From a phage, in sequence record PZ445443.1: a DNA stretch of 64,000 nucleotides; one strand, written 5' to 3'. A program made the position numbers and the translations under genes. Each line of letters opens with the position of its first letter. Position 1 is the stretch's first letter. The notes beneath the pieces were generated by a model. That model made no database searches, had not been told where the DNA came from, and saw nothing but the letters and a program-made list of their open reading frames with translations. Shown piece by piece: positions 60,647 through 61,601 of the stretch.

Positions 60647-60655
60647 AATATTTTC

Positions 60656-60684
60656 TTGACAAACTTTGCTTAACAGTGTAATAT
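60656..60684 (+). promoter_or_regulatory. sigma70-like promoter (TTGACA-17-TAATAT) for tRNA cluster
   Basis: Hexamers about 60 bp upstream of first tRNA. Confidence 0.5.
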
Positions 60685-60742
60685 TGTAAACATGGTCTCC
60701 CACCTTTTCTGGCGGCTAAGGTGTAAAAGAAAGCCACCCAGT

Positions 60743-60817
60743 GCCCTGTTAGCTTAGTGGATAAAGCAGCGGCCTTCTAAGCCGTTGACACTGGTTCGAG
60801 TCCAGTACGGGGTGCCA
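60743..60817 (+). tRNA. tRNA-Arg (anticodon TCT), CCA encoded
   Basis: Hand-folded cloverleaf: 7-bp acceptor stem (two G-U), anticodon loop CTTCTAA, T-loop TTCGAGT. Confidence 0.7.
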
Positions 60818-60821
60818 AATT

Positions 60822-60908
60822 GGGGAGTTATCCCGTAGAGGTAGCGGTGTAGACTGTAAATCTATTGTCATTGCGACTCGGGTGGTTCGACTCCACCACT
60901 CCCCACCA
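60822..60908 (+). tRNA. tRNA-Tyr (anticodon GTA), long variable arm, CCA encoded
   Basis: Perfect 7-bp acceptor stem GGGGAGT/ACTCCCC; anticodon loop CTGTAAA; T-loop TTCGACT; 87 nt. Confidence 0.7.
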
Positions 60909-61022
60909 AATTTATATTTTTAGATGCATAAATAATACAGATAATGGCATTGATATTTATCGTCGTTTATACTAGTCACTAACTGCTCGAAAATCAGTGT
61001 CATTATCAGTATAATTTATAAA

Positions 61023-61113
61023 GGAGGGTAGGGAGCAATGGTGCTCAAGCGGTCTTGAAAACCGTCCCGTTGAGGATGACTCGATGATGGTTCGATTCCA
61101 TTACTCTCCGCCA
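61023..61113 (+). tRNA. tRNA-Ser (anticodon TGA), long variable arm, CCA encoded
   Basis: Acceptor GGAGGGT/ACTCTCC; anticodon loop CTTGAAA; T-loop TTCGATT; 91 nt. Confidence 0.65.
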
Positions 61114-61211
61114 CATTGTTGACCTTGTAATTAAGCGAAAGTCGGAAGCAGAACCGGATTATCAAATGTTACAGTCGTCATCGCCGACTAGCAACATGGT
61201 CAACATACTGA

Positions 61212-61308
61212 GCTAGGTAAGCCCTTTGGCAAGGGCGAGGATTTTTAATCCTGAAAATAGACGAGGTAGTCGTTGAATACATAGGTGGTTCGATTCCATC
61301 ACCTAGCA
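61212..61308 (+). tRNA. atypical tRNA-like gene (possible UUU anticodon, oversized variable region, no encoded CCA)
   Basis: Perfect acceptor stem GCTAGGT/ACCTAGC and T-arm GGTGG-TTCGATT-CCATC; anticodon arm non-canonical (AGGA-TTTTTAA-TCCT); 29 nt between anticodon and T stems; 97 nt. Confidence 0.4.
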
Positions 61309-61315
61309 CCTTTTT

Positions 61316-61391
61316 GCTGATGTAGCACAATCGGTAGTGCAATTGATTTGTAATCAATAGGTTGTAGGTTCAAGTCCTGCCATCAGCACCA
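61316..61391 (+). tRNA. tRNA-Thr (anticodon TGT), CCA encoded
   Basis: Perfect acceptor stem GCTGATG/CATCAGC; anticodon stem ATTGA/TCAAT with loop TTTGTAA; T-loop TTCAAGT. Confidence 0.75.
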
Positions 61392-61392
61392 A

Positions 61393-61467
61393 GGCCCTGT
61401 AGCTGGAAGGTTCAAGCAAGCGACTCATAATCGCCAGACGGTGGTTCAATTCCACCCAGGGCCACCA
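61393..61467 (+). tRNA. tRNA-Met or tRNA-Ile2 (anticodon CAT), CCA encoded
   Basis: Perfect acceptor stem GGCCCTG/CAGGGCC; anticodon loop CTCATAA; T-loop TTCAATT. Confidence 0.7.
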
Positions 61468-61478
61468 AATAGTAAATA

Positions 61479-61555
61479 CTCCGCGTAGCTCAGCTTGGTA
61501 GAGCGCCTGATTTGGGATCAGGAGGTCGAGTGTTCGAATCACTCCGTGGAGACCA
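61479..61555 (+). tRNA. tRNA-Pro (anticodon TGG), CCA encoded
   Basis: Acceptor CTCCGCG/CGTGGAG; anticodon stem CCTGA/TCAGG with loop TTTGGGA; T-loop TTCGAAT. Confidence 0.7.
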
Positions 61556-61601
61556 CTTTCAGTTATACTTTAAACATATATAAACAAAAGGAACCTTTAA
61601 A

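Follow-up and report, generated by a model that had tools for sequence, protein, structure and literature searches.

A five-arm tRNA-like gene in the tRNA operon of rV5-like phages belongs to a structurally constrained Vequintavirinae family and is a possible tRNA mimic

Introduction

In this study we analysed 64,000 nucleotides (nt) of phage DNA (PZ445443.1; this whole stretch is referred to as the window) from an rV5-like Vequintavirus, which contains a cluster of transfer RNA (tRNA) genes at 60743-61555 and, inside the cluster, an atypical tRNA-like gene at 61212-61308, hereafter the element (both on the plus strand, as are all window coordinates below). In a comparison of phage records, the region of the cluster shares 99.9% identity with Escherichia phage V5/rV5 (NC_011041) and with about 100 relatives, which replaces the T5-like context that a first-pass annotation of the window had in mind. 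Sequence comparison shows that the element belongs to a family of tRNA-shaped RNAs that is structurally constrained and specific to the Vequintavirinae, and the copy in the window carries every hallmark of this five-arm family.

Results

The whole gene comprises 97 nt up to the discriminator base plus an encoded CC (61212-61310). It is recognised by the Rfam tRNA model (RF00005) with 35.5 bits against a gathering score of 29 (E=0.00095 over the whole window), is reported by ARAGORN as 'tRNA-???' with the four-base anticodon 'atcc', and scores 103.5 bits on a covariance model of its own family (R1, built from 24 variants). The minimum free energy (MFE) fold is a five-arm cloverleaf of -34.2 kcal/mol (z=-4.09; none of 200 shuffles folded equally well), and the Rfam alignment has the same register as our reading of the anatomy, with the loop UUUUUAA. 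The first-pass annotation of an atypical tRNA-like gene within the cluster thus holds, and both predictors find a cloverleaf while neither gives a standard class II tRNA for Leu or Ser.

The acceptor stem, described earlier as a perfect stem of 7 base pairs (bp) accompanied by a canonical T arm, is indeed formed by GCUAGGU (61212-61218) and ACCUAGC (61301-61307), with seven of seven pairs retained in the 24 variants and four of them compensatory. It is followed by A8 and A9 (61219-61220), where A8 replaces the usual U8, is invariant in all 24 variants and goes together with U14, and where position 9 is A or G. In tests of tRNA features, the U8-A14 pair is replaced by A8/U14, and the anticodon is not conserved among orthologues. 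The D arm, GCCC-UUUGGCAA-GGGC (61221-61236), shows covariation in three of its four stem pairs and can alternatively be read as a 6-bp stem with the 4-nt loop UGGC, RNAalifold adding two invariant U-A pairs.

The anticodon-like arm, AGGA-UUUUUAA-UCCU (61238-61252), is supported by the sequence, the Rfam alignment and stem covariation. It is bracketed by two invariant guanines in the alignment, one before the stem at 61237 (position 26, or position 27 of a G.G mismatch) and one after it at 61253, and it corresponds to the non-canonical arm of 4 bp plus mismatch reported in the first pass. In the copy of the window, the loop has 7 nt with U33, the triplet UUU at 61244-61246 and A37 and A38 at 61247-61248, on a stem of 4 bp (or 5 bp with the G.G mismatch and no position 26); in addition, U31-A39 and U32-A38 can pair, so that the arm is also readable as a 5- to 6-bp hairpin with a loop of 3 to 5 nt.

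Between the anticodon and T stems lie 30 nt (61254-61283), one more than originally counted, and the hairpin described there is confirmed at 61260-61274. This extra, fifth arm, GACGA-GGUAG-UCGUU, is part of the MFE fold and shows a compensatory change from A-U to G-C in Av-05 and TH18. It is flanked by AAAAUA (61254-61259), of which G-AAAA, counted from the preceding guanine, is invariant across the family, and by GAAUACAUA (61275-61283), in which AUACAUA is invariant in 28 of 28 variants. The T arm, GGUGG-UUCGAUU-CCAUC with a canonical loop (61284-61300), retains five of five pairs with one compensatory change. The discriminator is A73 (61308), an A in five of five UUU variants, and the trailer CC-UUUUU (61309-61315) ends directly ahead of tRNA-Thr, which starts at 61316. 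The earlier statement that CCA is not encoded here, while all six of six neighbouring tRNAs in the cluster encode it, therefore stands with the qualification that its first two bases are present (A73-C-C-UUUUU). The T-arm/acceptor hairpin together with CC-UUUUU (61282-61315) also scores as intrinsic-terminator-like, the U run being confined to rV5-type copies.

A BLAST search with the element matched 166 phage records, 96 of which were at least 99% identical over the aligned stretch. Through the weaker matches, homologues were traced in Seunavirus, Mydovirus, Henunavirus and Avunavirus, and pattern scans of IMG/VR and metagenomes added more, resulting in 28 distinct variants, all on Vequintavirinae-type contigs of about 120-150 kb. 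Apart from these contigs, the viral and metagenomic scans for distant relatives returned only chance matches in coding sequences. A first pattern scan of one genome each of 185,579 bacterial species found no copies, and the nine matches to a second bacterial pattern scored at most 23 bits on R1, compared with at least 92 for true members, and were read as chance. Family members score 92-115 bits on R1, including L059, which was outside the training set, whereas the best canonical tRNA across four phage arrays reached 24.5 bits (class II tRNAs 22-24.5), and each array holds one R1 copy. The hallmarks of the family are A8, the D loop UUUG(G/U)(C/U)AA, an anticodon-like stem-loop enclosed by two G, GAAAA and AUACAUA on either side of the fifth-arm hairpin, the T loop UU(C/A)GAUU, and acceptor and T helices of 7 and 5 bp.

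The non-rV5 copies are largely missed as tRNAs by standard tools. The Rfam tRNA model gives 33.1 bits for TH18 and 29.4 for L055, about 23 and thus below threshold for the Seunavirus and Mydovirus copies, and likewise sub-threshold scores for the Henunavirus copies, whose best Rfam match is tRNA-Sec (39-40 bits, cut-off 47); ARAGORN made no calls for the Seunavirus or Mydovirus copies in the arrays examined. The Rfam YrlA model yielded a sub-threshold, off-target match at 61420-61532 (25 bits against a gathering score of 69). The gene has been lost in phages V18 and O157 typing phage 4 through a chimera between tRNA-Tyr and the element. In these chimeras (L060 847-947 in V18 and L061 837-932 in O157 typing phage 4), the 5' part of tRNA-Tyr is fused to the 3' part of the element, which deletes the 3' half of tRNA-Tyr, tRNA-Ser, both spacers and the 5' half of the element, and the acceptor strands no longer pair.

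Structural conservation was examined in an alignment of 24 sequences at 20 pairs, namely those of the acceptor, D and T stems, the three outer pairs of the anticodon stem and the tertiary pair 19:56. All 480 of 480 stem cells are standard pairs, compared with 85% after column shuffling and 32-47% when the partners are slid by one to three columns. Both sides have changed in 10 of the 20 pairs, and the covariation score of 0.438 (0.165 in shuffles) was reached by 0 of 500 shuffles. Pair 19:56, which joins the G at 61229 in the D loop to the T loop, is G:C in 15 variants, U:A in nine and unpaired in none; because both positions switch together without exception, a tRNA-type elbow is indicated. 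RNAalifold independently yields the cloverleaf. Within the anticodon-like stem, pair 27:43 is A-U, G-C or G-U, and covariation extends to the fourth pair, which is A-U in rV5, U-A in Seunavirus and C-G in both Henunavirus and L059.

Besides the stems, an invariant core is retained that consists of A8 together with U14 (inverted with respect to the customary U8/A14), the two guanines around the 4-bp anticodon stem, GAAAA and AUACAUA. The hairpin between these flanks occurs in at least five unrelated types with covariation inside the types, and identical scaffolds bear different types (BIS47 versus DP/KPP-1). The element is thus very probably a real, selected tRNA-like RNA. Two further ideas about these segments were discarded: a sarcin-ricin-like reading of the 'GAAYUAACAGUAY' arm type is inconsistent across variants, and a role of AUACAUA as an antisense or seed sequence, which is complementary to UAUGUAUU and has a 6-mer match, found by eye, at the start of a downstream open reading frame (ORF), is unsupported.

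The anticodon loop and the discriminator differ between the genera. The five Vequintavirus variants have the loop UUUUUAA with UUU and A73, followed by CC in four and CA in one, and the three Avunavirus-like variants have UUUAUAA with UAU, U or C at position 73, no CCA and, in one of them, G1.U72. In the 14 Seunavirus and Mydovirus variants, the loop C-[A/C/U]-[U/G]-C-C-A presents UCC or GCC and is followed by U73-CCA; it has 6 nt on a 5-bp stem, or 8 nt with the closing C-G open, and position 33 is A, C or U. The six variants of Henunavirus and two metagenomic lineages carry the 7-nt loop [C/U]AUCAAA with UCA, A33 in Henunavirus, and U73-CCA. The discriminator is hence U in 20 of 20 NCC and UCA variants. 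Across the 14 NCC variants, the loop varies at positions 33 and 34 alone, and C35, C36, A37, U73, the encoded CCA and C2:G71 are constant, with G1:C72 almost so. C2:G71 is found in all 24 variants of the alignment and G1:C72 in 22 of them. The Lys-like character proposed in the first pass therefore applies to the window phage, where both UUU and A73 are present, but UUU is confined to the genus Vequintavirus.

These positions overlap with nucleotides read by synthetases. The identity elements of bacterial glycyl-tRNA synthetase include G1-C72, C2-G71, C35, C36 and U73, and those of E. coli lysyl-tRNA synthetase (LysRS) are U34, U35, U36 and A73 (PMC9976931). The window copy matches the LysRS set (UUU at 61244-61246, A at 61308), and the sequences of the NCC copies suggest that these keep the glycine set (C35 C36, U73, G1:C72 and C2:G71). 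It is suggestive that the geometry needed for decoding (U33, loop size) appears to vary freely, while the nucleotides read by synthetases appear to be kept and to change together.

With regard to its origin, gene conversion from a phage tRNA-Lys was considered and rejected, as the anticodon arm of the element is unlike the canonical phage tRNA-Lys arms; Mydovirus tRNA-Lys scores 9.8 bits on R1, and its anticodon stem is unrelated to that of the element. An origin from tRNA-Gly was likewise dropped, with no canonical tRNA-Gly among the R1 matches.

The operon is preceded by a sigma-70-type promoter (TTGACA-17-TAATAT, 60656-60684) found in a promoter scan, and the rV5 RefSeq record places P(tRNA) at the same site. 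ARAGORN predicts tRNAs for Arg(UCU), Tyr(GUA), Ser(UGA), Thr(UGU), Met(CAU) and Pro(UGG) in addition to 'tRNA-??? (atcc)'. In the window, the element is located 98 nt past tRNA-Ser and 7 nt ahead of tRNA-Thr, and in the other genera it starts 2 nt beyond the CCA of the upstream tRNA. Neighbouring tRNA-Thr carries UGU in all arrays examined. In Mydovirus and Henunavirus, the arrays comprise 20-23 ordinary tRNAs, among them Gly(UCC) and Lys(UUU); since a canonical tRNA-Gly(UCC) is present, the element is redundant as a Gly reader there.

Several further observations concern the neighbouring genes and spacers. The tRNA with anticodon CAU at 61393-61467 is annotated as tRNA-Met in the rV5 RefSeq record and as tRNA-Ile (codon ATA) in BASEL records, the alternatives being an elongator Met tRNA or a lysidine-modified Ile2 tRNA. 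The AT-rich spacer between tRNA-Tyr and tRNA-Ser (60909-61022, 114 nt) has a predicted fold as an extended, imperfect hairpin (-26.2 kcal/mol, z=-4.45, equalled by 0 of 200 shuffles) and contains a promoter-like TCGAAA-17-TATAAT at 60987-61015; an internal promoter or a small RNA is conceivable here. The ends of the 98-nt spacer between tRNA-Ser and the element (61114-61211) can pair (UUGACC at 61118-61123 with GGUCAA at 61198-61203); its fold is not significant (z=-1.55), and its sequence is kept in some rV5-type contigs and swapped out in others. Portions of 60650-61600 are matched at 80-95% identity by 737 phage records, including Tequatrovirus and other phages outside the Vequintavirinae, hence some single tRNA genes are apparently common to several phage families. 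Moreover, 18 'Campylobacter phage' records (GenBank MG0656xx) match the cluster; those listed are 99-100% identical to rV5-like coliphages and look like mislabelled or contaminant genomes.

Other unusual tRNA-like genes were encountered in related arrays. In Seunavirus and Mydovirus, a second aberrant gene lies directly upstream of the element (L004 1119-1194, L005 1118-1194, L007 1051-1126 and L008 1051-1125). It has a conserved body with compensatory acceptor changes, U1:A72 and G73-CCA, its loops are ACGAUUC, AAGAUUC, ACAGAUCC or ACGAUA (6-8 nt, no U33, GAU kept), and it is annotated as Ile, Ser or '???'. This gene may represent the same phenomenon as the five-arm element. Furthermore, in Erwinia phage pEa_SNUABM_55 (L058), tRNA-Trp(CCA) (87 nt, 3445-3531, minus strand) and tRNA-Asn(GUU) (86 nt, 2372-2457, minus strand) have a class-II-like variable arm with a 4-bp stem and a GAAA tetraloop, and tRNA-Lys(UUU) (86 nt, 2520-2605, minus strand) has an extra hairpin in its D arm. 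The tRNAs for Trp, Asn and Lys normally belong to class I, without a long variable arm.

Discussion

Given that the same body bears other loops in orthologues, the function conserved across the family cannot be that of a Lys tRNA. The varied loops on one body make a different RNA on a tRNA scaffold, raised as an alternative in the first-pass annotation, the best fit to the family, and the sequence pattern makes it more likely that the family is a tRNA mimic than an ordinary lysine tRNA. We tentatively put forward a mechanism, which we regard as possible though short of probable, in which the element acts as a mimic or decoy and, in the window phage, as a look-alike of tRNA-Lys. By analogy with tRNA biology, the element would be excised like its neighbours, with RNase P setting the 5' end at G61212, exonucleases trimming the 3' trailer, and the host CCA-adding enzyme turning the encoded CC into CCA. 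Judging from the comparison across genera, its role would rest on the L-shaped body and the enlarged invariant core and not on one fixed codon, while the genus-specific triplet and discriminator would mimic the identity set of one synthetase, that of Lys here and that of Gly in Seunavirus and Mydovirus. Factors that act specifically on tRNA-Lys(UUU) may then recognise the rV5 RNA and perhaps charge it, and the RNA could serve as a surrogate or decoy substrate, e.g., for Lys-directed anticodon nucleases of E. coli defence systems, without being an efficient codon reader.

Such a role would have precedents on both the defence and the counter-defence side. Anti-phage nucleases repeatedly target tRNA-Lys(UUU), whose cleavage products, for example, increased 194-fold with a bacterial Schlafen nuclease (PMC13056530), and phages are reported to counter tRNA-targeting defences with tRNAs of their own (PMC10264068, PMC11555353). 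The first-pass proposal that the rV5 version is a nuclease-resistant substitute or decoy is a possible one.

Several points weigh against this mechanism. All its functional steps are inferred, and a stoichiometric decoy would require high abundance. The losses in V18 and O157 typing phage 4 show that phages can do without the element, at least in culture. The link between UUU and A73 goes back to a single evolutionary event, the Avunavirus combination of UAU with U or C at position 73 matches no identity set, and the UCA of Henunavirus fits the decoy idea poorly. To our knowledge, the only host tRNA with a UCA anticodon is tRNA-Sec. Moreover, the loop of the rV5 copy has the full canonical set of decoding features (U33, A37 and U32.A38), so that a genuine Lys tRNA is possible in Vequintavirus, and the rV5 cluster contains no second Lys tRNA according to ARAGORN, at a Lys codon usage of 76 per 1000 in the long ORFs of the window.

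The last two points lead directly to the strongest competing explanation, doubtful in our view but serious, according to which the element is a genuine decoding tRNA-Lys(UUU) with an odd body that is charged by LysRS and reads AAA and AAG. It would feed a lysine-rich phage proteome or replace host tRNA-Lys destroyed by defence nucleases, its short anticodon stem and extra arm making it a poor nuclease substrate. In addition to the missing Lys tRNA and the codon usage, this explanation draws on the canonical 7-nt loop with U32, U33, UUU, A37 and A38, where A73 completes the identity set (PMC9976931), on the tRNA-Lys annotation in at least eight records of the BASEL collection and a few others, on the Henunavirus tRNAs for Trp, Asn and Lys, which bear added arms together with normal anticodon loops, and on the documented escape of phage tRNAs from tRNA-targeting defences. 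However, orthologues with the same body have loops of 6 or 8 nt or lack U33 and would be unable to decode normally, and the closest relatives, Av-05 and TH18, read UAU and have decaying acceptor ends (U or C at position 73, G1.U72 in one). In the rV5 copy itself, the anticodon stem of 4 bp is one layer short, the CCA is incomplete, and pairing of U31-A39 and U32-A38 can shrink the loop to 3 nt. Furthermore, its 35.5 bits on the Rfam tRNA model compare with 60-77 bits for four neighbouring tRNAs, and its body is unlike that of phage tRNA-Lys, as seen from the R1 score of the latter.

The mimic or decoy mechanism can also be extended to a programmable decoy, in our estimation an unlikely proposition, in which each genus would write the identity set of one host tRNA onto a non-decoding five-arm scaffold, the Lys set in E. 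coli phages and the Gly set in phages of Salmonella, Klebsiella and Cronobacter. Charged or bound like the host tRNA, such an RNA would soak up or misdirect effectors attacking that tRNA, with anticodon nucleases and toxins acting on aminoacyl-tRNA or the acceptor end as possible targets; the Salmonella toxin TacT, for example, recognises Gly-tRNA via U73 and G71 (reviewed in PMC9976931). The adjoining aberrant tRNA gene, at 'position 2' of the arrays, would then be a second decoy of the same kind.

It is distinctly unlikely that the anticodon plays no part at all and that the element is a tRNA-shaped RNA acting either as a protein platform through the GAAAA/AUACAUA core or as a processing or termination module that tunes the maturation and relative amounts of the operon tRNAs and spacer RNAs. 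Such a role would agree with the conservation pattern, in which the core flanks, the D loop and the elbow are the most conserved parts and the anticodon loop and the fifth arm the least, with the resemblance of the rV5 T-arm/acceptor hairpin and CC-UUUUU to a terminator, and with the tRNA-like stable RNAs held in the T4 tRNA operon. Nevertheless, it leaves unexplained why C35, C36 and A37 are fixed beside variable positions 33 and 34 in 14 variants, and why discriminator and triplet change jointly with strict U73-CCA in 20 variants; as for termination, a U run past the gene exists only in rV5-type copies.

That the element is a functionless, decaying tRNA pseudogene carried along in the operon is very improbable. 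The incomplete CCA, the loss of the gene in two Vequintavirus lineages, the sloppy acceptor ends of the Avunavirus copies and its absence from the rV5 reference annotation and paper could be taken in this way, but pairing in the stems is complete (100%) over five genera and includes 10 compensatory pairs, the tertiary pair is compensated as well, the single-stranded segments are invariant, the element is still retained in the rV5 array, which is reduced to six tRNAs, and 96 of the 166 GenBank matches are nearly identical to it. Finally, a standard class II or suppressor tRNA in another register (AUCC or UUA), as implied by the ARAGORN call 'atcc' and by the labels tRNA-Stop(tta) in JLBYU08 and tRNA-TERM in SophiaRose, is hardly credible, because the atcc register, by reconstruction, needs pairing of AUUUU (61241-61245) with AAAAU (61254-61258), which is restricted to rV5-type copies and cannot form in other genera, the UUA register shifts the loop by one base without a supporting stem, and the covarying stem A/G-G-G-N fixes the register used here.

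Among known RNAs, the element most resembles in kind the class II tRNAs (Leu, Ser, Tyr), which combine a cloverleaf with an extra hairpin between the anticodon and T arms and share with the element the 7/5 acceptor/T helices, G18 and G19, the UUCGAUU T loop, the 19:56 elbow and the location in a tRNA operon. In contrast, the variable region of the element has 30 nt with invariant single-stranded flanks of 6 and 9 nt, its 4-bp anticodon stem stands between two invariant guanines, A8/U14 replaces U8/A14, and the triplet and loop length differ among orthologues. A class II identity was rejected for the window copy, as no anticodon for Leu, Ser or Tyr occurs in any supported register and the arm sits between its 6-nt and 9-nt flanks instead of following position 45 directly. 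The tRNA-Sec family (RF01852) shares a long extra arm, a D arm readable as 6 bp with 4 nt, and UCA-A-A in Henunavirus, but the family under study has 7/5 instead of 8/5 helices and U or A instead of G as discriminator, and the rV5 copy carries UUU; with at most 40 bits, below the cut-off, and an acceptor stem of 7 bp, an assignment as tRNA-Sec was also rejected.

The closest precedent with regard to context are T4 species 1 (rnaC) and species 2 (rnaD), small non-tRNA RNAs within a phage tRNA operon. Like the element, rnaC has a tRNA-type T arm (GGGUUCGAAUCCC) and paired termini, but both T4 RNAs are longer (139 and 119 nt) and are not full cloverleaves. Neither was matched by R1, for which T4 (L056) gave only tRNA-Thr and tRNA-Leu at about 21 bits, and we know of no function assigned to rnaC or rnaD. 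Closest in proposed function are phage tRNAs that evade host defences, which are phage copies of the targeted isoacceptor with altered anticodon-arm features. The T5 tRNA-Lys reportedly escapes PARIS. Further reported cases are the T5 tRNA-Tyr, which evades retron Eco7, and mycobacteriophage tRNAs (PMC10264068, PMC11555353). These evading tRNAs are otherwise normal class I decoders, whereas the element has an extra arm, a shortened anticodon stem and orthologues with other triplets or with unreadable loops. A tRNA shape is also used for processing or protein binding, and not for normal decoding, by tRNA-Other of B. cereus, mascRNA, the tRNA-like units of herpesvirus TMER RNAs and bacterial YrlA. 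These mimics show no homology to the element and have other architectures, and none of them is a phage family with genus-specific anticodon-like triplets. The Vequintavirinae RNA thus extends the known tRNA-like RNAs and atypical phage tRNAs.

We found no description of the Vequintavirinae five-arm RNA in the literature. The rV5 genome paper counts six tRNAs and does not mention the element (PMC3606486), and the rV5 RefSeq record leaves it unannotated. In GenBank, it is unlabelled or appears as tRNA-Lys, tRNA-OTHER, tRNA-???(atcc) or tRNA-Stop(tta). This annotation, missing or given in four mutually incompatible forms, affects hundreds of GenBank records, including those of rV5-like therapeutic candidates, and 'tRNA-Stop' labels could falsely imply suppressor activity.

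Phage tRNA genes are currently read either as a codon supply or as a replacement of tRNAs destroyed by immunity, and the five-arm family fits neither, with selection acting on its body and core across five genera while the loop is rewritten in each genus, often into forms that should be unusable for a ribosome. If the element indeed decodes, a 30-nt variable region, a 4-bp anticodon stem and A8/U14 can all be accommodated in translation. If the family is a true mimic or decoy, it would represent a new type of RNA-based counter-defence, in which a natural tRNA scaffold carries a swappable identity.

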